This document shows positions 3,980-18,986 of a stretch of DNA of 19,959 nucleotides, in pieces (positions within the stretch are counted from its first letter, which is position 1; each line of letters begins with the position of its first letter). The position numbers and the translations under genes were made by a program. The stretch is from a virus. Location: the UHGV virus genome UHGV-1722906; one strand, given 5' to 3'. The notes beneath the pieces were generated by a model. It had not been told where the DNA came from. It saw nothing but the letters and a program-made list of their open reading frames with translations, and ran no database searches.

Positions 3980-4532
3980 TTATTCTTCCTGCTTAATAAA
4001 TCGGGATTCCTGGAGCGCCTGAAGCGCAAAATTAATCTCGTCTTCAATAATGCGTTCGATCTCCCTGGCTGTTTTGCCTTCACAACGGGGAGCTGCTCTT
4101 GGAGCAATACTAAATAAGCGGCTACGCAATTCATTAGCTGCCAGAAATGCATCATCCCTGACCGCATCTTTAGCGATGAGAGAGCCTTCCTTTTCTTCAA
4201 ATTCAAGGCGTTTCAGCTTTGCCTGATAAATTTTTTCTGCGGTCTTAGCCTTGTTGAATTGCACCGCAACACCGGAAGTACCACCAGCTAATCCGGCATC
4301 ATCAGCGGGTAACTCTGGTTGTTCCGAAGATATCCCATGCCCTCTTTTTCCGTTTTCAGCAGATACCTCACGACCAACCTGTCGGCTCGCTTCATAAGCC
4401 GCACTAGCTTTATCAAAATCCAGCTTGCCGCTTTTCAGCACTGGAATGCGACCGGAACGACAGAGCTTCGTAACCATTGCCGGAGAAATACCTTTCCGGC
4501 GGGCAAACTCTGACTTACTGACGATGGCCATT
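3980..4532 (-). CDS. Terminase small subunit with N-terminal HTH
   Basis: Track ORF 3980..4540 begins with TTG. The ATG at about 4532 (MAIVSKSEFARRKGISPAMV...) overlaps the stop of the upstream ParB-like gene as TAATG, so it is the more likely start. N-terminal helix-turn-helix and a charged coiled C-terminal half are typical of Nu1-type small terminases. Confidence 0.7.
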
Positions 4533-5121
4533 ACTTGCAACCATTAGCAAGATACTGAACAAATCCCTCATGAGTTTCATGCGCGTCGTGGTACTGACGA
4601 TAAACATCCAGCAACAATGCAATTTCCATATCCGTCGCGGGAATACGTTCTTTATCAATAGCCAGGTACTTAATTTGAACAACAGGGGAAGAATTATCGT
4701 CTTCTTCCTGCGGCTGTTCATCGCTTAACATTTCGTCAAGCTCTGCATCATTAAACCCAAGCAGATCAATATCAAAATCATCATCCATTAACGCTTTGAC
4801 TTCTTCGGCCAGAAGCTGCATATCCCAGCCAGCATTTAAGGCCAGCTTGTTATCTGCAATCCTGTAAGCCTTCTTCTGTTTTTCAGAAAGGTTACTCAAC
4901 CGAATCGCTGGAACTTTATCCATTTCCAGAATTTCGGCTGCTGCAAGCCGCCCATGCCCCGCAATCAGTTCATTCTTTTCATCGATCAGCACAGGATTAG
5001 TGAAACCGAACTCACGGATACTGTTCACCAACTGTTCAACTTGCTCATCTGAATGAGTCCGTGAATTTTTGGCGTATCTGAGCAGCTTACCGACTGGTAA
5101 ATATTCGATTTTTAGAGCCAT
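4531..5121 (-). CDS. ParB-like nuclease domain (ParB/Srx fold) protein
   Basis: 196-aa ORF with motif LIDEKNELIAGHGRLAAA, matching the GxxR box of ParB N-terminal domains. Stop overlaps the terS start. Confidence 0.75.
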   Translation of the reverse strand: MALKIEYLPVGKLLRYAKNSRTHSDEQVEQLVNSIREFGFTNPVLIDEKNELIAGHGRLAAAEILEMDKVPAIRLSNLSEKQKKAYRIADNKLALNAGWDMQLLAEEVKALMDDDFDIDLLGFNDAELDEMLSDEQPQEEDDNSSPVVQIKYLAIDKERIPATDMEIALLLDVYRQYHDAHETHEGFVQYLANGCK

Positions 5122-5678
5122 TTTTTAACCGCCATAACACAACAGGTTAAAGAAAACTGTTTAACTTATTGATACTAAAAGAGAAAAATGACGATCTTTT
5201 TACTCATAAAAAATCACACAAACCAGCATAATCATCTGATTTTATTAAGTTTTTATAAGTAAAAAGGATCTTGATATGGTGTTTTGGTTAAAAGATTGGA
5301 TGTATTTGCATGATTTATAACGATTTTTATCAAAACAGCCTTACATTAGTTAAAGATCTGCGCGTATCTTGATGATCTAAAAGAAAATTTTCTACTTTCT
5401 TTTTACCATCGCAAGCACAGCAAAAAATCACGTTTTCCCAATATTTTTCAATGAGATGAGTAAATTTCTTTTACCGCAACTTTTAACCTAACTTTTTTCA
5501 CGTTTAGCTAGCCGAACATCGGGGTTCGAATGACCCGCATCCAACGCTTTTGGCCAGAAGGACCCAATTCTGCCGGACGATGAAACGATGCTCGTGCTCC
5601 CCCACAGACAGCCAGCGAGCGACGCTACAGAACACAGTGAATACACTCTGCATAACAACACCATCAACCACACGATGA
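5122..5678. promoter_or_regulatory. Long non-coding spacer: AT-rich promoter-like part (about 5130-5480, four GATC sites) plus a GC-rich part (about 5500-5678)
   Basis: No credible ORF; the two track ORFs here are short and Cys/Leu-rich. Sits upstream of the ParB-like/terS/terL operon on the minus strand. Confidence 0.35.
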
Positions 5679-6398
5679 TTAACGAGAGAAGGTCTTAGAA
5701 AGAATGTCATCAATAGCCTTTGTGACTTCATCAGCAAACGCATCCTCACCAGCACGCAGCGCCACGCCATGCCAATCAAGACGCTGCGAATAGTTAGGTT
5801 GCTGGATAAACGTAAGGATCAACGTAGGACGCCGCCCAACGCGCTGCCAGACACCTGGTTGAAGCGGGTTACTTGTACCAGGTCGAACAACAAAAAACTC
5901 CGTAGGCTTGCCCTGACGGCGATTTTGATGCGCATCTCGCTGAACTCTTAGGCCAGATAAGACCTGCTGTAATTGCCCCCGCGAAATATTCCCGTATTTG
6001 TCCAGCTTTGCGCCGGGACCAGGAGCAAGCTGCCAGCCGTTAGGCAAATATCCACCAGCCCTTAGCGCCCCTTCTGAGCGTTTGTACTGTCGTTGGCCAC
6101 CTTCGATTTGCGGAGTCAACGTTACAGGGGCTGGCGTTCCTCCCCATTCACGAGCATACACAATGGCTGTAGGATCACTCTTCTTTGCGGCCAAAACGTA
6201 AGTAGAGTTCTGAATCCACGGCGTGGGCCTGTCAAATACCCGATTAATTTCATTCTTAATCGCAGCCTGAGAAGCCTTTGCCGTTCTGGTTGCCGCAAGC
6301 GCCATTGCGAACGGCAATTCGCGTTCTTCAAGGCGCTGGAGTTGTCGTTGAATATCCTGAGAAGAAAAATCCATCTTTATCTCAATTCTGTCAGCCAC
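5679..6398 (-). CDS. Hypothetical protein (239 aa), function unknown
   Basis: Long ORF on the same strand as its neighbours, between the two ParB-domain genes. No motif I recognise. Confidence 0.55.
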   Translation of the reverse strand: MADRIEIKMDFSSQDIQRQLQRLEERELPFAMALAATRTAKASQAAIKNEINRVFDRPTPWIQNSTYVLAAKKSDPTAIVYAREWGGTPAPVTLTPQIEGGQRQYKRSEGALRAGGYLPNGWQLAPGPGAKLDKYGNISRGQLQQVLSGLRVQRDAHQNRRQGKPTEFFVVRPGTSNPLQPGVWQRVGRRPTLILTFIQQPNYSQRLDWHGVALRAGEDAFADEVTKAIDDILSKTFSR

Positions 6399-6414
6399 CA
6401 GCGCCTCCTACACA

Positions 6415-7794
6415 CTACTTAATCAACGGCCGGAAAGCCGCCAGCACATCATCAGATCGTCCGATTGTTGAACCACCAGGCAACGGCAACTCAAACTCAA
6501 AACGAACAGCTTTCTCCAGACTCGCCCAACTAAGGGAATCATCGTTAATGACGTGCAAATACCAGCTCTTACAGTTGAATATTGACCGCTTAATCCTGAA
6601 ACCATGTACACGACACAACTGCTTCACTTCATCATCAGAGTGAAACTTCTGGTAAAACCAGTGCCCCTTCCGGTACAACGCGGTAAAACCGTTATGATCA
6701 ATAAAATAAAGCCGGCTTTTGGAACTCGCCGCTTGTGTTTGCTTCAGGACTGTTTCCAGCTCTCCACGGCTACGACCAGAAAAGAATATTGACCCACCAG
6801 CTTTACACAGGCCTTTTAGAACCGTCAGAACGGACCATTCAGCCTCGACACTATCGACCGAGTTCAAAACGCTATCGCAAATCACGTAGTCGTAACGCCC
6901 TCGCGTTTTTAAGTCGTCCACCAGCGTATCAATCATCCGGTTTGTTGCGGCCCTATCCAGAGTGTTTCCAGCGCCCTTACGGCGGAAAAGCTCGAGATCA
7001 TGCAGGTTATATCCCTTTGCCCTGAGCATTCGCGCGTAGTCTCCCTGCCCCGAACCAAAATCAATTCCTCTTGGCGTCTTGGCAATGATCGGGAGGATCA
7101 ACGACTCATACAGGTTTGATTTCAGGCTGCCACCATTACGCAACCGCATAAGCTGCGCATACGTCTGGATGTATGTTGTTTTCTCCAGATGAGAATACTC
7201 AAATACACCATAAGTTTTATTCAGATAACTTTGGTATTTTTCCTTCTCAACATCAGGGATCACAAACACCGTTAGCGGTGTGCGCGTCATCTTCGCTGCT
7301 AATGCATACTGAGCACAGTGAATAACCTCGCCAGACTGAGTAGCAACACAACCACCCCACGGACCATACTTGATAACCAGTTCCGCTATGTTCTTTCGAA
7401 CATATGCCATTTTCGCGCGCATATTGCCTGAGATCTGGCTTGCCGATACCTGAACAAAACCATGCTTATCTTCCAGACCGGACACCCTGCAACGCTCATC
7501 TCCGCTATCAAAATCCGTTCCGTTATGCAGTTGGTTAAACCGTACTTCGTCGTATACCGTCGTTTCACAGGGCAACACATACACCGCAGCACGCGTTATT
7601 CCCAACTTACGTAGCGCCTTCGTCCTTTGGTGTCCCGCCACCAGCAAATCGCCGCGCACTATCAATGGCTTCACAAGCCCCAGCTCCCTGACGCTTTCCG
7701 CCAGCCTCGCAAGATCATCCTCACCGATAAAACGCGGGTTATATTCCGCGCCACGTAGGTGCGTTATGTCGTAATTGAGGTGAAGCATCAGCAC
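6415..7794 (-). CDS. ParB-like N-terminal domain fused to a class I SAM-dependent methyltransferase
   Basis: 459-aa ORF. N-terminus has LLVAGHQRTKALRKLG (ParB/Srx box). Centre has GIDFGSGQGDYARML, a glycine-rich SAM-binding motif I. I could find no DPPY/NPPY or PCQ motif, so the substrate is uncertain. Overlaps the upstream ParB gene by 7 nt. Confidence 0.75.
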   Translation of the reverse strand: MLMLHLNYDITHLRGAEYNPRFIGEDDLARLAESVRELGLVKPLIVRGDLLVAGHQRTKALRKLGITRAAVYVLPCETTVYDEVRFNQLHNGTDFDSGDERCRVSGLEDKHGFVQVSASQISGNMRAKMAYVRKNIAELVIKYGPWGGCVATQSGEVIHCAQYALAAKMTRTPLTVFVIPDVEKEKYQSYLNKTYGVFEYSHLEKTTYIQTYAQLMRLRNGGSLKSNLYESLILPIIAKTPRGIDFGSGQGDYARMLRAKGYNLHDLELFRRKGAGNTLDRAATNRMIDTLVDDLKTRGRYDYVICDSVLNSVDSVEAEWSVLTVLKGLCKAGGSIFFSGRSRGELETVLKQTQAASSKSRLYFIDHNGFTALYRKGHWFYQKFHSDDEVKQLCRVHGFRIKRSIFNCKSWYLHVINDDSLSWASLEKAVRFEFELPLPGGSTIGRSDDVLAAFRPLIK

Positions 7795-8411
7795 ACCTCC
7801 CCAGCCAGCAATGCGGATACAAATCCGATATAGCTGCCATTATCATCAACATAACGAGACACCGCGCAGTCAAAACGATCCGCTTCCTCATCCGTTGCCG
7901 GGATTTTATGACCTCCAAATGACAGGTACTGAACTTTTACGCCTGATTTGGCCTCATCCTTCTCAAATGGGATATCCATACCCTCTGTGTCATCGTAGAC
8001 CGCCGCACTCAATAAGTTATCCAGTTCGCGCTGAGTAAAACCAATTGAGTCCAGAGCAAAATCATCGGCCGCAAGATCTGCAAGCTCCGCGCTTAACAAC
8101 TCTTCATCCCAACCAGCATTCAGCGGAATACGGTTGTCGGCCAGACGATATGCCTTCTTCTGATTCTCCGTTAGCCCAGCCAGAACAATGCAGGGAACAT
8201 CATCCATCCCCAACTGAGTGGCCGCAGCAATTCGACCATGACCAGCAATTACAACGTTGTTCTCGTCTATCAGGATCGGATTAGTCCATCCGTACTCCTG
8301 TATGCTGGCAACAATCTGATCTACCTGCTCCACGGAGTGTGTGCGAGCGTTCTTTTCATAACCAATCAACACAGAAAGTGGTAAAGAAACCACATTAAGA
8401 TGTTTTGTCAT
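7788..8411 (-). CDS. ParB-like nuclease domain protein (paralog of 4531..5121)
   Basis: 207-aa ORF with motif LIDENNVVIAGHGRIAAA. Colinear with the 196-aa protein through shared blocks such as KNxRTHSxEQV, TENQKKAYRxADN and LNAGWD. Confidence 0.75.
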   Translation of the reverse strand: MTKHLNVVSLPLSVLIGYEKNARTHSVEQVDQIVASIQEYGWTNPILIDENNVVIAGHGRIAAATQLGMDDVPCIVLAGLTENQKKAYRLADNRIPLNAGWDEELLSAELADLAADDFALDSIGFTQRELDNLLSAAVYDDTEGMDIPFEKDEAKSGVKVQYLSFGGHKIPATDEEADRFDCAVSRYVDDNGSYIGFVSALLAGEVC

Positions 8412-9993: not shown

Positions 9994-10194
9994 TTAATGC
10001 TCGCGTCGTCCGGCGACAACTTCGGATTTGTATTTCAGGTCGCCCAGCAAGAATTGCAGTTTAAGCATCTTTGCCGCCGTGTAGTTCCCTGATTCCACAA
10101 CCTCTTTCATGAGGTCATAAACGGCCGCTACATCATCAGCCAGGAACTCTTTGCGTTGCTGCTCAGTCGCACGTTTGAAGGAAATACGCATCAC
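9994..10194 (-). CDS. Hypothetical small protein (66 aa)
   Basis: 4-nt overlap with the upstream 89-aa ORF, terminator immediately downstream. Confidence 0.4.
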   Translation of the reverse strand: MMRISFKRATEQQRKEFLADDVAAVYDLMKEVVESGNYTAAKMLKLQFLLGDLKYKSEVVAGRREH

Positions 10195-10460
10195 TCATCA
10201 TCTCCTGCCGCACATACAACCTCACAAAAAACATCAGCGGAATGTTTCTCCTTGAACGAATGACGCTCAAAACCGCACTCAATATCAGGCGCAAAAACAT
10301 CCACCACATACGGTCTTTCAGAATGTTGGTTTTCCCAACGATAAACCGTAGTGACGTTGAAATGTTTTAACGCTTCACGGAACTCAACGCTGCCCGTCAG
10401 GTTTTTTGAGGTCAGGTATTGCAGGAGGTTTTTTACTACTTCACGGTCTTGTACTTTCAT
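10191..10460 (-). CDS. Hypothetical protein (89 aa)
   Basis: ORF downstream of an AT-rich promoter-like stretch (about 10540-10580), overlapping the next ORF by 4 nt. Confidence 0.5.
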   Translation of the reverse strand: MKVQDREVVKNLLQYLTSKNLTGSVEFREALKHFNVTTVYRWENQHSERPYVVDVFAPDIECGFERHSFKEKHSADVFCEVVCAAGDDE

Positions 10461-10581
10461 CGGGTTATCTCCGGTTTAACCAGGGCGGGTATCGCTCGGT
10501 TTCGGGTATAACCTTAGGAAATTTTTTCCCACCTGTAAAGCATTTTTTATATAAATATATAATTATATAATTCTATGAGCA

Positions 10582-10608
10582 CAAAAAAGCCCCTTTGCAA
10601 CAGGGGCT
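10582..10608 (-). terminator. Rho-independent terminator of the higBA operon
   Basis: Hairpin AGCCCCT-GTTGCAA-AGGGGCT followed by UUUUUU on the minus strand, 16 nt after the higA stop. Confidence 0.6.
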
Positions 10609-10623
10609 TATCATTCGTTCTGA

Positions 10624-10923
10624 TCAGATGTTAAACGCTATTCGTTTTCCTGTGGGAAGCTCAACATCCAGGCTTAATTTGCCTCCCATAGCTTCAACGT
10701 AACGCTTTAATGTCGCCAGCTTTAAATCATTTCCGCGCTGCTCCAGCTTTGTTACTGCTGGCTGGCTTATACCCATCGCCTCAGCAACCTGTTTTTGTGA
10801 TAACTGGAGTTCTTCACGCATCATCTGCAAGCCGACCTCAAGAATCATCTCATCTGCCATTTCTTTAATTCGCGCCTGGCTTTCAGGTGAACGGCTGGCA
10901 ATCACCTCATCTAATGTTCTCAT
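10624..10923 (-). CDS. higA: HigA-type antitoxin (XRE-family HTH)
   Basis: 99-aa ORF with HTH segment LSQKQVAEAMGISQPAVTKLEQ. Lies downstream of, and overlapping by 1 nt, a RelE/ParE-like toxin gene; toxin-first order is the HigBA pattern. Confidence 0.8.
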   Translation of the reverse strand: MRTLDEVIASRSPESQARIKEMADEMILEVGLQMMREELQLSQKQVAEAMGISQPAVTKLEQRGNDLKLATLKRYVEAMGGKLSLDVELPTGKRIAFNI

Positions 10924-11276
10924 TACTTGCTCTCCAGTGTGTTCAGATGTGCTGCAAACTCATCCTCAGCTATACGCACCAGTTTTTCATAAAACCGTTT
11001 ATCGTTACTTTTGTCTCCTGCACAAAGAACGATGGCCCGGCGAATCGGATCGAACGCATAAAAGGCTCTTATCGGACGGCCAGAAAACTGAACGCGAAGC
11101 TCTTTCATATTTTTGTACCGAGAACCTTTTACGGTATCGGCATATGGCCTGGGTAACTCAGGTCCGTAAACCTGTAGCTTTTTCAAATCAGCCAAAACCT
11201 TTTCCTGAAGAGCGTCTTCTTGCTCATTTAGCCAGTCGTCAAATCGCTGGCTAAAAAGTACCGTCCACATGCTCAA
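10923..11276 (-). CDS. higB: HigB-type toxin (RelE/ParE superfamily, addiction-module killer protein)
   Basis: 117-aa ORF (MSMWTVLFSQRFDDWL...LRVQFSGRPIRAFYAF...) resembling the HigB/Gp49-like killer family, encoded upstream of its antitoxin. Confidence 0.75.
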   Translation of the reverse strand: MSMWTVLFSQRFDDWLNEQEDALQEKVLADLKKLQVYGPELPRPYADTVKGSRYKNMKELRVQFSGRPIRAFYAFDPIRRAIVLCAGDKSNDKRFYEKLVRIAEDEFAAHLNTLESK

Positions 11277-11330: not shown

Positions 11331-11514
11331 AAGAAAAACGGGGCTATTTAACATAATGGACGTTATCGGCACCACCGGATCACCGTTCATTGTCGGATCT
11401 AAAAAATCCGCTCAAAAGATCATGTTTTCCTGGGCGTTTTCCACCGTTTTTTATGTTGCTTATTTGTTAATGAAATCTCGTTTTCAGTTTCGCCTCATTT
11501 TCGACGCGAAAGCC

Positions 11515-11805
11515 CTATTTTTGTGACTTTACTCCTGGCATATGGACTTCCCAGCGACGAATCCCCATAGCTGCGCAAAAATCAGCCACATAATTCAATC
11601 CCGCCCATTCGCGGATACCACCACGGGCTTTTTCAATGAAAACGGCAATCCCTTTTTTATTGAGAGCAAAAAGCCGCCAGCTTTTTGTCACTTCGTCCTG
11701 GGTAGCCACAACACAAGTGAAAGCTCCCATGCGATACAGGTCCAAGAACTCTTTGCGTGTTTTGCGTACAAGTTCCATAACAAACCTCATATTTGCATGT
11801 TTCAA
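11515..11805 (-). CDS. Hypothetical protein (96 aa)
   Basis: ORF overlapping the upstream HTH gene by 4 nt (ATGA). No recognised motif. Confidence 0.5.
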   Translation of the reverse strand: MKHANMRFVMELVRKTRKEFLDLYRMGAFTCVVATQDEVTKSWRLFALNKKGIAVFIEKARGGIREWAGLNYVADFCAAMGIRRWEVHMPGVKSQK

Positions 11806-12101
11806 ACATCTGTTTTGTTATCAATGAAGATTAACCCTAACCCAGCGAAGTAACACAGCAGCGCCCAGGCTGCATACGGAATGCTGGATCTGGATGTGGA
11901 CTCCTTTAACATCTGCCAATTGCGAACATTGCGACTATCTTTTAAGCCAAGTTTTTTGGCCAACTGCGAGCCGCTCATTCCGGTCAGGCCAATGACTGCC
12001 CGAACTTCTCCACATGTAGGAGACTCCCATTCATCCGCTTTTTTTAAACAAGCCGGATTCAACATTTTTAAAACAGTATCTTTATCCATAACCATCTCCA
12101 T
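11802..12101 (-). CDS. HTH DNA-binding protein with C-terminal hydrophobic segment (99 aa)
   Basis: Helix-turn-helix-like stretch LTGMSGSQLAKKLGLKDSRNVRNW and hydrophobic tail IPYAAWALLCYFAGLGLIFI. Palindromic operator upstream. Confidence 0.55.
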   Translation of the reverse strand: MEMVMDKDTVLKMLNPACLKKADEWESPTCGEVRAVIGLTGMSGSQLAKKLGLKDSRNVRNWQMLKESTSRSSIPYAAWALLCYFAGLGLIFIDNKTDV

Positions 12102-12129
12102 TTATTATATCTACGATGGTAGGAAATCT

Positions 12130-12146
12130 TTTCCTATGTGGCAATA
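12130..12146. promoter_or_regulatory. Palindromic operator candidate TAGGAAA-tct-TTTCCTA, with a third TAGGAAA half-site near 12200
   Basis: Perfect 7-bp inverted repeat 29-45 nt upstream of the HTH gene start; likely autoregulatory site. Confidence 0.4.
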
Positions 12147-12479
12147 GAAATTTACTACATTGCGTATAAGACAACTTTTCTATGTCTAATAGGAAATGAT
12201 GTTTCTTACGTTTTATCGCGTTCTGATGGCTACTGTGTGCGTATTTATCGACGTTTATTGATAAGGCTCCCCCTTCCTCCTGCAAAGCCCGGCCGTAGGC
12301 CTTATTTCGTCCTTATATAAATTGATTTTGTATAGTTCGAAACGTGCCGTTTCGAAAAGGATGATCAGGCTACTCCATGCCTCCGGCAAGTGCCGGAGGA
12401 GGTATATTTGAGCGTAGCGACTCGAACCGGCGCGAGCTTTAGCTCGCTGCAAGGGCGAACATATTCACAGGCAAAGCCT

Positions 12480-12731
12480 GCGTAAGTTAAATAAAGAAAG
12501 TTTTAATAAAAGAAAGTGATTTTGCATTTATTTGTTTAGTGCATCTATTATAAAAAACCATTTGCATATACATATCAAAACTGTGGATAACTTGATTAGT
12601 TGATACCTGTAAAGGCGATATTTTTGCTGAGTTCAGGTTTAGAGAAAATTAATTTAGCTTGTTTTTTGAACAGCTATTTTTTTGCGACGTAGATAATCCT
12701 CCGGTAAAACCGGATTCATCATTCAGGTGAG
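12480..12731. other. Candidate plasmid origin (IncFII oriR-like): AT-rich region plus a consensus DnaA box
   Basis: TGTGGATAA (reverse complement of TTATCCACA) at 12582-12590, about 145 bp downstream of the repA stop, next to an AT-rich stretch at 12480-12580. This matches the known repA-then-ori layout of IncFII replicons. Confidence 0.55.
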
Positions 12732-13589: not shown

Positions 13590-13702
13590 CTTGCGTCCAC
13601 GGAAAACCAACGTATAATGGGAGTTGTCGAGGCGCCCATGGTTAATTGTTGGTTTTCCGTGGATGTCGCAAGAAGCCCGCAGATTTATCTGCGGGCTTTT
13701 TG
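13590..13702 (+). ncRNA. Candidate CopA-like antisense (countertranscript) RNA over the repA leader
   Basis: Plus-strand promoter-like TTGCGT-16-TATAAT (about 13591-13618), a long imperfect inverted repeat (13598-13615 with 13646-13663), and a perfect terminator hairpin AGCCCGCAG-ATTTA-CTGCGGGCT plus TTTTT (13674-13702). It is antisense to the repA 5' region and nothing on the plus strand is coding here. Confidence 0.4.
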
Positions 13703-13890
13703 TTTCCATATCTGGTCACTTTCCAACCAGACACCCACAATCATAACCACGTTACGTGGTTTTAAGAGAACTCTACCACAACACTTTCGGTCATGCACGA
13801 AGTCTCTCACTGATCGAACGATAATCCACCAGTAAAAGGATCTAAATTGGATCTCGTTTTGCGAGCATCATACTACTGGCCTAACTCCAG

Positions 13891-14445
13891 TCAATGATTC
13901 CCAGCCGGAAACCTGCGGTAAAGCGTGGATAAGGTAACATCGAAGATAATCGCTATCCGCTTACGTGAAACACCATTCGCAATAAGCCTTCCGATCTGTT
14001 CCCATTGCTCTGGTGCCAGCTTTGAGCGACGTCCTCCTATCCTGCCGTTAGCCCTTGCCACCGCCAATCCTGCACGCGTTCTTTCAATCATATTTTCCCG
14101 CTCCATCTCTGCGACTGCACTCAGCATCGTGTAGGCAAAGCGGCCAATTGAAGTGCTAATTTTTATCCCTTCCGTAATCGAAATAAACTCAATGTTGTTT
14201 GATAAAAAATGGTTAAGTAAATCAACAAGATGAATCAGAGAACGCCCCATTCGGTCCAGCTTCCAGACAATAACCGTATCGCCCGGCCGTAGCACCTTAA
14301 GTAGCTTATCAAGCCCTGGCCGTTTTGATTTAGCACCGGATATTTTATCTTCAAAAATCCGGTCACATCCTGAACTCCTGAGCGCCTCCAGTTGTAATTC
14401 CAAATTCTGGTCAAAAGTTGACACCCTCGCATAACCATATTGCAT
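13891..14445 (-). CDS. pin: DNA invertase, serine recombinase of the Pin/Gin/Hin/Cin family
   Basis: 184-aa ORF with N-terminal catalytic motif GYARVSTFDQ and a C-terminal HTH (IAIIFDVTLSTLYRRFP) like the Hin/Pin DNA-binding domain. Sits next to inverted tail-fibre cassettes. Confidence 0.9.
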   Translation of the reverse strand: MQYGYARVSTFDQNLELQLEALRSSGCDRIFEDKISGAKSKRPGLDKLLKVLRPGDTVIVWKLDRMGRSLIHLVDLLNHFLSNNIEFISITEGIKISTSIGRFAYTMLSAVAEMERENMIERTRAGLAVARANGRIGGRRSKLAPEQWEQIGRLIANGVSRKRIAIIFDVTLSTLYRRFPAGNH

Positions 14446-14510
14446 ACTTTCTAAACCGCGATTGTTGCTAAAAGCGGGAAAAAATATCGTTCAGACGACA
14501 CAGAGGCAAT

Positions 14511-14536
14511 TCGCAAAAACCTCGGTTTGCAGGAAA
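14511..14536. other. gix/pix-like 26-bp site A (extra site between pin and the functional left site)
   Basis: Reverse complement reads TTCCTGCAAACC-GA-GGTTTTTGCGAA. Its left half and inner flank are identical to the right site and the start of the expressed variable segment. Core is 49 bp from site B, so out of frame with it. Confidence 0.5.
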
Positions 14537-14558
14537 CGGTAAATCAGGCTTGCCGCCG

Positions 14559-14584
14559 TTATCGAATACCTCGGTTTACGAGAA
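14559..14584. other. Left crossover site B at the start of the silent Sv' cassette
   Basis: Reverse complement reads TTCTCGTAAACC-GA-GGTATTCGATAA; the outer half and about 21 bp of flank (encoding AAVIEY) are identical to the constant side of site R. Confidence 0.65.
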
Positions 14585-15280
14585 CTCGGCACAAGCGGGG
14601 AAAAAATACCGTTACTCAGTACGGCGAATACCTGGACCAATCGACAAACATTCAGTGGTGGCCTTTCTGGGGAACTGTCCGGCAATGCCGCTACTGCAAC
14701 AAAGCTGAAAACAGCACGAAAAATTGCTGGAGTTGGTTTTGATGGTTCTAGCGATATTTCAATTAGTGCCAAAAATGTCAATGCATTTGCACTCCGACAA
14801 ACAGGTAATACTGTTAATGGTGATACTTCCGTTGGATGGAATTGGGATAGTGGTGCATATAACGCCATGATTGGTGGCGCATCTGCATTAATTCTTCACT
14901 TTAATATAAATGCTGGTAGCTGTCCTGCCGTACAATTCCGTGTGAATTATAAAAATGGTGGCATTTCCTACAGGTCAGCTCGTGATGGTTATGGATTTGA
15001 ATTAGGTTGGTCAGATTTCTATACCACGACACGAAAACCATCAGCGGGAGATGTTGGCGCATATACTAAAGCGGAATGTAATTCACGTTTTATTACAGGT
15101 GTTCGTTTAGGAGGCCTGTCATCTGTTCAAACATGGAATGGGCCTGGTTGGTCTGATAAGTCAGGTTATGTCGTTACGGGTTCAGTTAACGGAAACCGTG
15201 ATGAATTAATTGATACAACTCAGGCAAGGCCAATTCAGTATTGCATCAATGGAACGTGGTATAACGCGGGGAGTATTTAA
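14561..15280 (+). CDS. Alternative tail-fibre C-terminal cassette (Sv'-like); promoterless, no start codon, expressed only after inversion
   Basis: Frame open from site B to the stop at 15280 per the track frame (track ORF 14867..15280 is its first in-frame ATG). Translates to ...LGLRELGTSGEKIPLLSTANTW...HFNINAGSCPAVQFRVNYKNGG...IQYCINGTWYNAGSI, a typical side-tail-fibre C-terminal domain. Confidence 0.75.
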   Translation: MEYLGLRELGTSGEKIPLLSTANTWTNRQTFSGGLSGELSGNAATATKLKTARKIAGVGFDGSSDISISAKNVNAFALRQTGNTVNGDTSVGWNWDSGAYNAMIGGASALILHFNINAGSCPAVQFRVNYKNGGISYRSARDGYGFELGWSDFYTTTRKPSAGDVGAYTKAECNSRFITGVRLGGLSSVQTWNGPGWSDKSGYVVTGSVNGNRDELIDTTQARPIQYCINGTWYNAGSI

Positions 15281-15282
15281 TT

Positions 15283-15816
15283 ATGATGCACTTAAAAAAT
15301 ATTACTGCTGGCAACCCTAAAACAAAAGAGCAATACCAGCTAACGAAACAATTTAACATCAAATGGCTTTATTCAGAGGATGGAAAAAACTGGTATGAGG
15401 AACAAAAGAATTTCCAGCCAGACACTTTGAAAATGGTCTATGACCATAACGGCGTTATTATTTGTATTGAAAAGGATGTTTCAGCAATTAATCCGGAAGG
15501 CGCAAGCGTCGTTGAATTACCTGATATTACAGCAAATCGCCGTGCTGACATTTCGGGTAAATGGATGTTCAAAGATGGCGTAGTGGTAAGGCGAACTTAT
15601 ACCGAGGAAGAGCAGAGGCAGCAGGCGGAAAATGAAAAGCAAAGCCTGCTACAGCTCGTCAGGGATAAAACCCAACTATGGGACTCACAGCTACGGCTGG
15701 GCATCATTTCCGACGAGAATAAACAAAAATTAACAGAGTGGATGCTCTTTGCGCAGAAAGTCGAATCTACAGACACTTCCAGCCTGCCAGTAACGTTTCC
15801 CGAACAACCAGAATGA
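15283..15816 (+). CDS. tfa: Tail-fibre assembly protein, alternative copy (Tfa') for the silent cassette
   Basis: 177-aa ORF; N-terminus MMHLKNITAGNPKTKEQYQLTK...[13 protein letters not shown] is homologous to the opposite-strand tfa. Confidence 0.85.
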   Translation: MMHLKNITAGNPKTKEQYQLTKQFNIKWLYSEDGKNWYEEQKNFQPDTLKMVYDHNGVIICIEKDVSAINPEGASVVELPDITANRRADISGKWMFKDGVVVRRTYTEEEQRQQAENEKQSLLQLVRDKTQLWDSQLRLGIISDENKQKLTEWMLFAQKVESTDTSSLPVTFPEQPE

Positions 15817-15820
15817 GAGA

Positions 15821-15848
15821 AGGCCCGATATCGGGCCTTAATTTTTAC
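15821..15848 (+). terminator. Palindromic terminator between the convergent tfa genes
   Basis: Perfect palindrome AGGCCCGATATCGGGCCT followed by TTAATTTTTA on the plus strand. Confidence 0.55.
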
Positions 15849-16372
15849 TCTGGTTTTTGTGGCCATTCCGGCTTTGCCGTATCCACGCGGCTGACCAGAA
15901 CGCTGTAGCGTTCCCAGGCTTCCAGTCGTGTACGTTCCTCATCTGTTGCCATATTCAGCCTGACAGCGCGCTCCAGTGGCTGAATAACGCTTTCCGCTTC
16001 GGAAAGTAACGCGGCCTTTTGTGATTCGGCCTGTTGTTGCTGCTCGTCTGCCGTATAAATCCGTTTAACTACAGATCCGTCCTTAAACATCCACTTACCG
16101 GAATCATCGGCCCGACGATTGGCTGTTATATCGGGGACCTCAACGACGCTAAAACCTTCAGGGTTAAGCGTGGAGGCATCTTTAGTTATGGCAACAATAA
16201 TATTATGTTCATCGTAAACAATCTTTATTGTGTCTTCCTGAAAATTCTTTACCTCTTCATACCAGTTTTTTCCGTCTTCGGACCACAACCAGATAACGTC
16301 AAAATTCTTTGTTAATTCGTACTGTTCCAGTGTTTTAGCGTTACCAGCTTTAATGTTCTTTAAGTGCATCAT
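15845..16372 (-). CDS. tfa: Tail-fibre assembly protein (Tfa) for the currently expressed fibre
   Basis: 175-aa ORF 1 nt downstream of the tail-fibre stop, with the conserved Tfa N-terminus [22 protein letters not shown]. Confidence 0.85.
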
Positions 16373-16373
16373 A

Positions 16374-18986
16374 TTAAACGCTCGCTACATTATACCAGGT
16401 GCCATTTATATACTTTTGAATCGGTCTGTAATAAACACCCGCAATATTATCGGCAGAATTGGAACCTGTATCCTGAACATTAATACCAGACAATACATGA
16501 CCTGACGGGCACTGGAAATTCCATGTTTGCCAGTTGTTTACACCATAATATTGCTGTGAGCCAAGCCGAACATCCTTTACATATCGGGAATCAATGTTAC
16601 CCCAATTGCTTGGTTGTATCTGACCGTTTACAGCAAATATCACCGAGTTATCTGTATTCCGCTGACTATAGAAATGCCAGCCTGAATCATCACCAAGCTC
16701 TGCAACAGTTGGTCTTGACGAATTTCCCCACAAGTTAAATGATGCATTACGGGCAGAGTTATTTGCACTTGCAAGAGTGAATAACTTACTTTCCCCAGCT
16801 TGAATACCCTTTAATGATATTGCTGAACCATTTCTAAAGCGGAATACATGCACACCATTAGCATAAGCATCCAGCACCCCATCACCATTTTGTTTAAACC
16901 CGGTATCGTTATCTCCTAAAACTATTGAATTGCCACCCAGGGCATTAGCCGTTCCAATCCCCAGATTTCCGCTAAAAATGGCATTAATACCGAATATTGA
17001 GTGAGAACAATAAAACCCTCGTCCATTGTTAAAATCCAGAATGGTCTGTACATTTGTGCTTTCTGTCGCGGGATTAGTTGCCCCCCACTTATATCTTGTT
17101 TGATCGATAGTATAATCCTGTGTTGGAACAATAACAGTTAGTCCTTCTTCAGCAAGAATCCGCACAGGAAAAGCCCTGCCTTCAATGTAAAAAACGCTGC
17201 ATACATCATCTTCTTTCATGCTTGTAACGATAGAATGGATTGCGCGTTCATTAGACTGATACGTCGAAAAATAACCTGCCGCATATGAACCACGATCAGT
17301 CCAGCCACCAGGCATTACCATTCCATTGAATTCGCAGTTATTCATTGCGTAATCACCACTGGCAGATGTGGTCGTTATAATCACTCTGGAAGCCAGCTCG
17401 CCAGTGCTGCCTGTGGAACGCCGGAAAATAACTGGATACCACTTTCCACCAACTGCATTAGACGGCGCATTAAATGCGTACTGCCGCATTCCTTTTTTCT
17501 TATCCACCTCGCCTTTGCTGTAAACATTAATGTTACTCAGGAAGCGACCCTTATCAGGAATATCCGCGCCGTTCTGGTTTTTTTGTAATGCGCCAGAAGC
17601 CTGATTTACCGTTTCCTGCAAACCGAGGTATTCGATAACGGCGGCAACGGTCGATTTCGCAAGAATATCCCGCCCGACTTTTGTCAGAGTTGCCAGGCTG
17701 GCGACATCATTCCCCGTAAAATACGGAAACCTGTCTGCCGCAGTGGCAAGCCCGGCCAGTGCGCTCAGCGTGTTGTCTTTCGGTTGCTTACCCGCAAGCG
17801 CGTTAGTCATGGTGGTCGCAAAATTCGGGTCGTTGCCCAACGCCGCAGCCAGCTCGTTCAGCGTATTCAGTGCGTCAGGCGACGAGTCCACGAGGGCAGC
17901 GATCGCAGCCATAACATAAGCCGTGCTTGCGATCTGAGTATTGTTAGTACCTTTTGGCGCAGTTGGTGTTGTTGGTGTTCCGGTCAGCGCCGGACTGTTC
18001 AGGGGCGCTTTCTTGTTCGTTTCATCCATTACCACCTTTACAGCTTTCGATGTCGCGGCCAGTGTTTCAGACGTGCTGTTGGTGGCACTACTGAGCTGAG
18101 TTATTCCCCTTACAGTCAGTGAAGCTACAGGCACATTTGTTATCTGCGCCCACGAATGCGTGTGATTGGACGGAGCCTTTCCGGCCGCAAGATCATACGC
18201 TGCCTTAACAGCCTTTGGTGTTGCTGCCAGCGTTTCAGACGTGCTGTTGGTGGCACTACTGAGCTGAACAATCCCTTTTCGCGCTGTGGTAGCGTCCTGT
18301 GCGGTGTATTTAGCGTTAGCCAGGTCATATGCTGCCTTAACAGCCTTAGGCGTCGCAGCAAGCATTTCAGACGTGCTATTGGTGGCGCTGCTAAGTTGAA
18401 CAAAGCCTTTTGAGGTTAAAGTTGCATCAGGATGATTACGTGATTGCTCATGTTTCACAATGGCTTGCTTAAGCCGCTTTGCTGAAACAGCAAGGGAATC
18501 ATCTGTACCTGCATCAATTTCTTGTTCATTAGCAAATCTTGCCACCCCAACAACAGTTTCGGTCGCGGGAGGATTAATAAACTCAATATCACCAAATGTA
18601 ATATTTTTAGTATCAAGAGTTTTAATTGCTATATCACTTGATATTAAAGCGATAGTAGATGATGCTTTATTTATTATTGCTTGTTCTTGTGAGTATACAG
18701 CAAACAACGTACCCTTATTCGTATACAATCCTATTGTATGGACAACATACTCATCTTTACTATCATCCTTCGCTGTTACATGAATTGTATCAGGGGAAAC
18801 AACTTTGCCACCTATTGTGGTAAGTCGTTTTATTTCGTTTGTTATATTTGTTTGTGAAGTTGACGTGACATAATATCTACTACCTAAACCAACAGAAACA
18901 ATCTCAACTTTATTTGTTCCTGTTTTGTTGGCATTAACCAGCTCCTGACGCCCGGCGTCAGTCATCGTAAATAATAATTTACTCAC
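16374..18986 (-). CDS. Side tail-fibre protein (constant N-terminal part plus currently expressed variable C-terminal part)
   Basis: 870-aa ORF with three copies of the repeat [11 protein letters not shown][TM]LAAT[PS]KAVK and C-terminal motif [13 protein letters not shown]. Contains crossover site R at residues 448-458. Confidence 0.9.
17613..17638. other. Right crossover site R inside the tail-fibre gene (constant/variable junction)
   Basis: TTCCTGCAAACC-GA-GGTATTCGATAA on the plus strand, closely matching the Mu gix consensus as I recall it. Encodes [11 protein letters not shown] at tail-fibre residues 448-458; inverted relative to sites A and B. Confidence 0.7.
18029..18400. repeat. Three tandem intragenic repeats (about 130 bp each) encoding the tail-fibre repeat motif
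   Basis: Near-identical stretches containing GTTTCAGACGTGCTGTTGGTGGCACTACTGAGCTGA recur three times, corresponding to tail-fibre residues about 197-320. Confidence 0.6.

Follow-up and report, generated by a model that had tools for sequence, protein, structure and literature searches.

A predicted KorC-family repressor and its putative operator in an Escherichia coli phage-plasmid

What two small co-directional genes contribute to the phage carrying them is the question raised by the UHGV virus genome UHGV-1722906, of which a stretch of 19,959 nucleotides, referred to below as the window, was analyzed here. The first gene encodes a helix-turn-helix (HTH) protein and is preceded by a perfect palindrome, and the second encodes a small basic protein. 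A first-pass annotation had suggested a copy-number regulator, a second toxin-antitoxin pair or a membrane-anchored repressor. The comparisons presented below indicate that the HTH protein belongs to the KorC family, although it had not been annotated as such, that it has an XRE-type HTH, and that it probably represses its own operon and several other operons of the same element. In its own operon, the second gene appears to be an optional passenger.

The window region is at least 99% identical to about 30 E. coli plasmids of 47–50 kb. A plasmid from ATCC 25922 is among these relatives, as are vB_YpM_39, 41, and 44, which are Yersinia myophages. Since the annotation of the element includes contractile-tail, baseplate, terminase, and portal genes, a Hin-type invertase, and an IncFII-family RepA, the element is a phage-plasmid, and the window is part of a myovirus-type E. 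coli phage-plasmid of about 48 kb with an IncFII-like RepA. An early guess placing it in the pSLy3 phage-plasmid group was dropped; according to the literature, pSLy3 belongs to the SSU5 supergroup. The gene pair is located downstream of the IncFII-type repA gene and adjoins a strongly conserved origin-like block. Each window protein is present with exactly the same sequence on at least 1000 public contigs, where the names seen were "hypothetical", "uncharacterized" or "bacteriophage protein".

Both genes are carried by the minus strand, in open reading frames (ORFs) extending from 11802 to 12101 (99 aa, counted from an ATG at 12101) and from 11515 to 11805 (96 aa). These two ORFs had been correctly recognized in the first-pass annotation, but the lengths of 99 and 96 aa do not hold: judging from how near-identical plasmids are annotated in RefSeq and from how the homologs align, the HTH gene starts at ATG 12089 (MDKD, 95 aa; 11802–12089), preceded by a GGAG Shine-Dalgarno (SD) sequence, and the second gene at ATG 11778 (MELVRK, 87 aa; 11515–11778), with a GAGG SD sequence of its own, 23 nt past the HTH stop codon. 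The actual proteins are therefore likely to be 95 and 87 aa long. The translational coupling by an ATGA overlap that had been proposed is not to be found in the sequence: the coding strand of the HTH ORF ends with GAT GTT TGA, and the 96-aa reading requires a TTG start overlapping the stop codon as TTGA.

Identity of the HTH protein and its predicted operator

Scans of the HTH and 87-aa proteins against Pfam, NCBIfam, PADLOC, and PHROGs yielded no functional family, and single-sequence homology searches returned only close relatives, which formed 15 clusters in the case of the HTH protein. The assignment of the latter to KorC is based on a tblastn search of annotated plasmids and on the gene context of the most distant of these 15 clusters, P0027, which is 52% identical to the HTH protein. 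The tblastn search gave about 3,900 records carrying relatives of the HTH protein, the top ones being genes annotated as korC on IncP and other plasmids. P0027 is encoded on an IncP-like contig in the order trfA-klcA-klcB-[P0027]-kleE-korA-incC-korB, where it occupies the position of korC in the IncP-type backbone. Comparison with KorC of the IncP-1beta plasmid R772 (85 aa) showed 51% identity (E 4e-23) across residues 11–85 of 85, and the hydrophobic C-terminus of the HTH protein lies inside this alignment (IPYAAWALLCYFAGLGLIF vs. IPYAAWAILCDQAGLGVIW). Since the R772 KorC itself matched no model in either Pfam or NCBIfam, its phage-plasmid relative is labeled hypothetical everywhere.

The AlphaFold model of the HTH protein has an XRE-type fold (pLDDT 83.6), the best Foldseek matches of which are AcrIF24, Aca1, Aca2, HipB, and the C proteins of restriction-modification systems. 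AcrIF24 is the best structural match (TM 0.70, 31% identity), and the HTH family profile also matches the HTH domain of AcrIF24 (E 1.6e-7) and, less closely, Aca3 (E 0.0024). The initial description of the first protein as an HTH protein agrees both with its homology to KorC and with its predicted fold. Homology searches were thus informative for this protein but gave no informative match in the case of its 87-aa neighbor.

The 17-bp palindrome TAGGAAAtctTTTCCTA (TAGGAAA-N3-TTTCCTA, 12120–12136) is a perfect 7-bp inverted repeat with a 7-3-7 geometry, as had been noted previously, and is located in the promoter of the HTH gene. Such a palindrome is not rare per se: the window contains six perfect 7-3-7 palindromes vs. 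about 1.5 expected, and TAGGAAA occurs six times vs. 3.0 expected, a number reached in 27 out of 200 shuffles. The palindrome at 12120–12136 exceeds chance because it is perfectly conserved amid diverged flanks and because it matches the KorC operators. Its conservation was assessed in the window and five further lineages (Citrobacter, Enterobacter, Klebsiella aerogenes, Salmonella, and one unassigned contig), the HTH proteins of which are 68–88% identical to that of the window. The intergenic sequences of the six lineages have diverged except in three blocks, TTGC, the perfect TAGGAAA-N3-TTTCCTA, and CCATC, and these blocks coincide with the sigma-70 promoter TTGCCA-17-TACCAT predicted by a promoter scan on the minus strand (12116–12144). 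The palindrome fills the spacer of this predicted promoter and provides the first two bases of the -10 element TACCAT. The sequence TATAAT at 12103–12108 was also considered as a -10 element and rejected in favor of TACCAT, since it leaves no leader for the SD sequence and is not conserved. The third TAGGAAA half-site previously reported in this promoter region does exist (12190–12196, plus strand), but its position and orientation are not conserved in any of the five other lineages, and it is probably either due to chance or specific to the E. coli lineage.

The same geometry is encountered in the IncP plasmids. The pattern TAGG-N9-CCTA occurs exactly twice in R772 (0.02 expected), in the form of TAGGACATTTTGCCCTA and TAGGGCATTTTGCCCTA, each 56 nt upstream of klcA/kleA, and once in the IncP-like contig L002, in the form of TAGGGCATTATGCCCTA, likewise 56 nt upstream of klcA. 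KorC reportedly controls the klcA and kleA promoters (PMC12365149, PMC7314908). The window palindrome TAGGAAATCTTTTCCTA has the same 7-3-7 geometry and the same outer TAGG/CCTA as these sequences, whereas the inner bases differ: the IncP KorC operators read TAGGGCA-N3-TGCCCTA, with GCA/TGC instead of AAA/TTT. Both its conservation and its likeness to the KorC operators suggest that the palindrome is likely to be an operator bound by the HTH protein in its own promoter, as had been proposed from the first reading of the sequence.

Repeated cassettes with putative operators

The only other site in the window showing up to three mismatches with the palindrome is located at 10515–10531, where the minus strand reads TGGGAAAAAATTTCCTA, with one mismatch. 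This putative second operator belongs to a repeated promoter cassette of about 110 bp (10461–10582, minus strand), which heads the gene 10191–10460 and a co-directional array extending towards the terminase gene. The cassette consists of an AT-rich upstream part, a -35 element TTTACA, 2 nt, the operator, and a shared 5' leader including GGAG, and it aligns with three copies present on the full-length plasmids. In the full-length ATCC 25922 plasmid (L010), these copies are found at 16251, 25945, and 32575, and they are all intergenic and located upstream of plus-strand genes; the window operator is identical to those at 25945 and 32575. The sites showing up to three mismatches total nine in the full plasmid vs. 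2.95 expected, a number which none of 100 shuffles reached. The window contains two operator sites, and the full-length plasmid contains four intergenic ones. Three copies of the cassette per plasmid are present in about 60 PLSDB records, and in the Citrobacter, K. aerogenes, and Salmonella lineages there is an equivalent cassette, the operator of which is perfect or nearly so.

A stretch of about 16 kb, which the full-length relatives (48–49 kb) carry between the toxin-antitoxin pair described below and the third cassette, is missing from the window; it includes genes for lysogeny, ParA, and lysis. The break lies at about 10583, at the upstream edge of the cassette 10461–10582, and the window cassette combines copies 1 and 3 in a mosaic. 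No contiguous version of this junction was found in any PLSDB record, and the junction may reflect either recombination between cassette copies or an assembly mis-join. Since the cassette coincides with the break between the window and its relatives, it is a candidate site of recombination. Three consecutive genes with ParB/Srx N-terminal domains (4531–8411, minus strand) lie between the promoter controlled by the cassette and the terminase gene, upstream of the latter, as annotated in the ATCC 25922 relative.

The 87-aa gene and the explanations considered

In six-frame searches, the 87-aa gene was found to adjoin the HTH gene in just two lineages, those of E. coli and Citrobacter. Relatives from Enterobacter, K. 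aerogenes, and Salmonella have kept the HTH gene and a perfect operator without any remnant of the partner at E<=1, and in these relatives the HTH gene is directly followed by either a HicAB or a Gp49/HTH pair. The HTH gene occurs without the partner at four of the loci compared (L005, L006, L017, and L018), and the partner without the HTH gene at four others (L012–L015). A profile search with the partner family gave 212 clusters, mostly from Salmonella, Klebsiella, and Citrobacter chromosomes. At the five prophage loci examined, which belong to lambdoid prophages, the partner gene occurs on its own in the nin region, with the replication genes on one side and dinI/ninG/Q on the other, and no KorC-like gene was found within 5 kb of it. 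Accessory genes are commonly located in this region. In a Salmonella prophage (L012, 5270–5450), the partner homolog is followed by a terminator-like hairpin and then by a LexA-box-like palindrome, TACTGTGTTTATATACAGT, preceding a dinI-like gene.

The partner family is rare, since an exhaustive profile search of 1.84 billion proteins gave only 27 representatives, none of which were informative. Its conserved motif is ARGG(I/V)REW(S/A)GL(N/D)YLA.F....GI..WEVH. The protein is a basic alpha/beta protein (net charge about +7, counted from the sequence) belonging to PHROG 4595. No match was obtained in Pfam, NCBIfam or PADLOC; the PHROGs matched were families of unknown function only; and structure comparison showed no toxin-like fold. 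A fold match was obtained with the ribosomal protein eL38, with which the identity amounts to only 5–12% and no sequence relationship exists, which suggests that the two have a topology in common rather than a function. Profile comparison showed that the protein is unrelated to KleA, the product of the gene following korC in R772. Judging from its distribution, the 87-aa gene appears to be an optional accessory cargo in the HTH operon and not a fixed partner of the repressor.

Several public assemblies contain a frameshifted version of the 87-aa gene, fused to an alternative frame starting with MFETCKYEV (proteins P0002, P0003, P0010, and P0031, relatives of window 11515–11824); these versions may be either sequencing errors or real inactivating mutations. 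A possible mRNA hairpin (11773–11824, minus strand), in which the end of the HTH ORF pairs with the SD sequence and AUG of the partner (19-nt arms, 79% complementary), has a predicted energy of -13.1 kcal/mol (z -1.8), and 11 out of 200 shuffles fold equally well. It shows no clear conservation in Citrobacter, and it was not retained as a coupling element because it is statistically undistinctive.

The explanation that we consider likely combines an autoregulated KorC-type repressor, a regulon comprising several operons, and an 87-aa accessory cargo. It draws on the homology, the operator geometry and its conservation, the overlap with the promoter, the repeated cassettes, and the fact that the two genes occur independently; binding and repression are what we infer from these observations. 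The KorC-like protein, as a dimer, would bind the palindrome TAGGAAA-N3-TTTCCTA, and the occupancy of this site between the -35 TTGCCA and the -10 TACCAT would block RNA polymerase, so that the bicistronic korC-like/87-aa operon would be negatively autoregulated. Since the same operator occupies the same position in the repeated cassette, the protein would also act as a global repressor of several phage-plasmid operons, in the manner of KorC on IncP-1 and IncU plasmids. In RP4, KorC is a global repressor, and its target klcA is induced about 120-fold upon entry into a new cell (PMC7314908); in RA3, KorC is the main global regulator (PMC7414963). By analogy with the behavior of klcA in RP4, the operator promoters would fire briefly upon entry into a naive cell, after infection or transfer, and be shut down as the repressor accumulates. 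The 87-aa protein, whatever its activity may be, would be carried as an optional cargo of the operon and not as a functional partner.

Some points weigh against this explanation. The -35 and -10 hexamers are predicted ones, and TACCAT and TAAGGT make weak -10 elements. Another repressor encoded by the element could in principle use the palindrome at 12120–12136. The operators of the E. coli cassettes show one or two mismatches, with TGGG in place of TAGG, and hardly any of the genes that follow the cassettes have a known function. In addition, the palindromes in R772 and L002 were picked on the basis of their position upstream of klcA/kleA, and the action of KorC at these promoters is taken from the literature (PMC12365149, PMC7314908).

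Among the other explanations, a type II toxin-antitoxin system, in which the HTH protein would be the autoregulating antitoxin and the 87-aa protein its toxin, fits the layout of the locus, where a small HTH gene comes first, a small unknown gene follows 23 nt behind, and a palindrome lies in the promoter; the XRE fold is common to the HipB and HigA antitoxins, and the possible hairpin could couple the translation of both genes. The pair is not conserved as a unit, however: the three sister lineages mentioned above have the HTH gene and the perfect operator without the partner, about 200 partner clusters are mostly chromosomal, and the partner stands alone, with no such HTH gene within 5 kb, in the five prophages. 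It matches no toxin, toxin-antitoxin or defence model and belongs to no known toxin family, the closest relatives of the HTH protein are KorC repressors, which regulate distant operons, and a separate, recognizable Gp49/RelE-HTH pair is located directly downstream. The idea of a second toxin-antitoxin pair put forward in the first-pass annotation is therefore very improbable. It is also very unlikely, for somewhat different reasons, that the HTH protein regulates the replication or copy number of the IncFII-like replicon, either like CopB or, as in RA3, via transcription into oriV. The order repA-origin-HTH is conserved in all six lineages, korC is essential for the maintenance of pOXA-48 (PMC12365149), and KorC of RA3 controls orf02prev (PMC7414963), and transcription from the promoter of the latter activates oriV according to a further report (PMC9455977). 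But a CopB-type (IncFII) repressor would be expected to have its operator at the repA promoter, and the HTH gene is located here downstream of the origin and not upstream of repA. The two operator-like sites of the window (up to three mismatches) are both outside the origin block (12290–12730) and the region upstream of repA (13709–13890), and no such site was found between 12140 and 19959, including the repA promoter. The HTH promoter is directed away from the origin, the scan detected no plus-strand promoter at the palindrome, and the operons preceded by the remaining operators are remote from the replicon. Control of copy number, as suggested earlier, is thus not supported.

That the hydrophobic C-terminus might tether the HTH protein to the inner membrane, as had also been suggested, is extremely improbable. 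The segment PYAAWALLCYFAGLGLIFI is indeed hydrophobic, with a mean Kyte-Doolittle value of 1.77 over 19 aa, but it appears to be a core helix and not an anchor: it is conserved in the cytoplasmic R772 KorC, where it reads IPYAAWAILCDQAGLGVIW and includes D and Q, its counterpart in the alignment with the crystallized HTH domain of AcrIF24 is ISFAAWHYL, and residues 72–81 form the last helix of the globular XRE fold in the AlphaFold model (block pLDDT 91). An anti-defence operon of the acr-aca type, in which the 87-aa protein would be a defence inhibitor or establishment factor and the HTH protein an Aca-like repressor limiting its expression after entry, is an unlikely explanation, which is nevertheless compatible with the KorC-type repressor reading and not exclusive of it. 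The profile matches with AcrIF24 and Aca3 and the presence of Aca1 and Aca2 among the best fold matches are in keeping with it, as is the fact that IncP KorC controls klcA, an anti-restriction gene induced upon entry (PMC7314908); the partner, a small phage-borne protein of variable occurrence, is found in the nin region of lambdoid prophages. The gene order is the opposite of that of typical acr-aca operons, however, and comparison of the partner with known anti-defence proteins and folds gave no match. A bolder version has only a rather small likelihood: the KorC-like protein would act as a master switch for the establishment of a widespread E. coli/Yersinia phage-plasmid, with four operator-gated promoters bursting upon entry into a new cell, and the 87-aa protein, which also occurs here and there in lambdoid prophages, would be a new kind of anti-defence or host-takeover factor produced during this burst.

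Comparison with known regulators and surroundings of the gene pair

Aca proteins and AcrIF24 repress their own strong promoter through inverted repeats. The sequence homology of the HTH protein with the C-terminal HTH domain of AcrIF24 is detectable and accompanies the best structural match, but AcrIF24 has anti-CRISPR domains besides, the usual place of aca genes is behind the acr gene, and no anti-CRISPR activity is implied here. With HigA, HipB, and the C proteins of restriction-modification systems, the HTH protein shares the fold class and the proposed autoregulatory logic; the similarity to these proteins is at the level of the fold only (E > 0.1), and the window HTH gene has no conserved toxin or restriction partner.

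The closest counterparts are the KorC proteins of the IncP-1 plasmids (RK2/RP4, R751, and R772). The R772 KorC and the window protein have in common the hydrophobic C-terminus IPYAAWA(L/I)LC...AGLG, and several target promoters on one replicon are a further likeness, whereas the recognition-helix region reads DRTIRRW in IncP-1 and SRNVRNW in the window protein. On the IncP-1 plasmids, which are conjugative, korC comes last in the klcA operon, whereas the window gene comes first in an operon of its own, on a phage-plasmid with an IncFII-type replicon; all the klc and kle genes are absent here, and the 87-aa gene is unrelated to kleA. KorC of the IncU plasmid RA3 is likewise a global regulator, coordinating several backbone modules, but the RA3 korC promoter has been reported to be weak, constitutive, and not autoregulated (PMC7414963). 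In the IncL plasmid pOXA-48, the only predicted KorC site is located between the -35 and -10 elements of the promoter of the korC-containing operon (PMC12365149), as in the promoter predicted for the window gene; up to four sites per phage-plasmid element contrast with this single one. Both RA3 and pOXA-48 are conjugative plasmids, whereas the element analyzed here is a phage.

As regards the neighborhood, the description of the gene pair as lying beside the origin proved to be accurate. On the 3' side of repA, an AT-rich, strongly conserved block (12490–12600) with repeated ATGCAAA and the DnaA box TTATCCACA (minus strand, 12590–12582) is probably the origin of replication. Between this block and the HTH promoter lie five hairpins in a row (12291–12485), which are conserved in five lineages, show compensatory changes at four base pairs, and have no Rfam match; they may constitute either a single-strand initiation/primosome site of the IncFII-like replicon or a structured RNA. 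The Rfam scan around the gene pair gave no match. A sub-threshold match with the Thr operon leader (31.9 bits vs. a gathering score of 55) was obtained at the 5' end of repA (13595–13705), and is probably due to chance, although it is located where the leader/antisense control region of an IncFII-type replicon is to be expected.

Directly downstream of the HTH/87-aa genes, the minus strand carries the recognizable toxin-antitoxin pair of the region (10624–11276), in which a Gp49/RelE-ParE-type toxin gene (117-aa ORF) overlaps an HTH_3 antitoxin gene (99 aa) by 1 nt; a promoter, TTGAAA-17-TATAGT, is predicted next to it at 11332–11304. Beyond repA, a Hin/Cin-type invertase gene stands beside opposed tail-fibre-assembly genes and a large tail-fibre gene (13891–14445 and 14491–18986), which suggests the presence of an invertible host-range segment.

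KorC repressors as such are known; what is new here is an unannotated KorC-family repressor on a phage-plasmid, together with a conserved operator and a small regulon. The KorC-type identity and the defined operator provide a directly testable regulatory map for a common family of 48-kb phage-plasmids, which includes the plasmid of the reference strain ATCC 25922 and plaque-forming Yersinia phages. A type of regulator known from conjugative broad-host-range plasmids is thereby extended to a tailed phage, and KorC and the Aca-type HTH of AcrIF24 turn out to be detectably homologous. If the establishment-switch version of the explanation were true, it would link the KorC regulators of plasmids and the Aca regulators of phages as one functional class.

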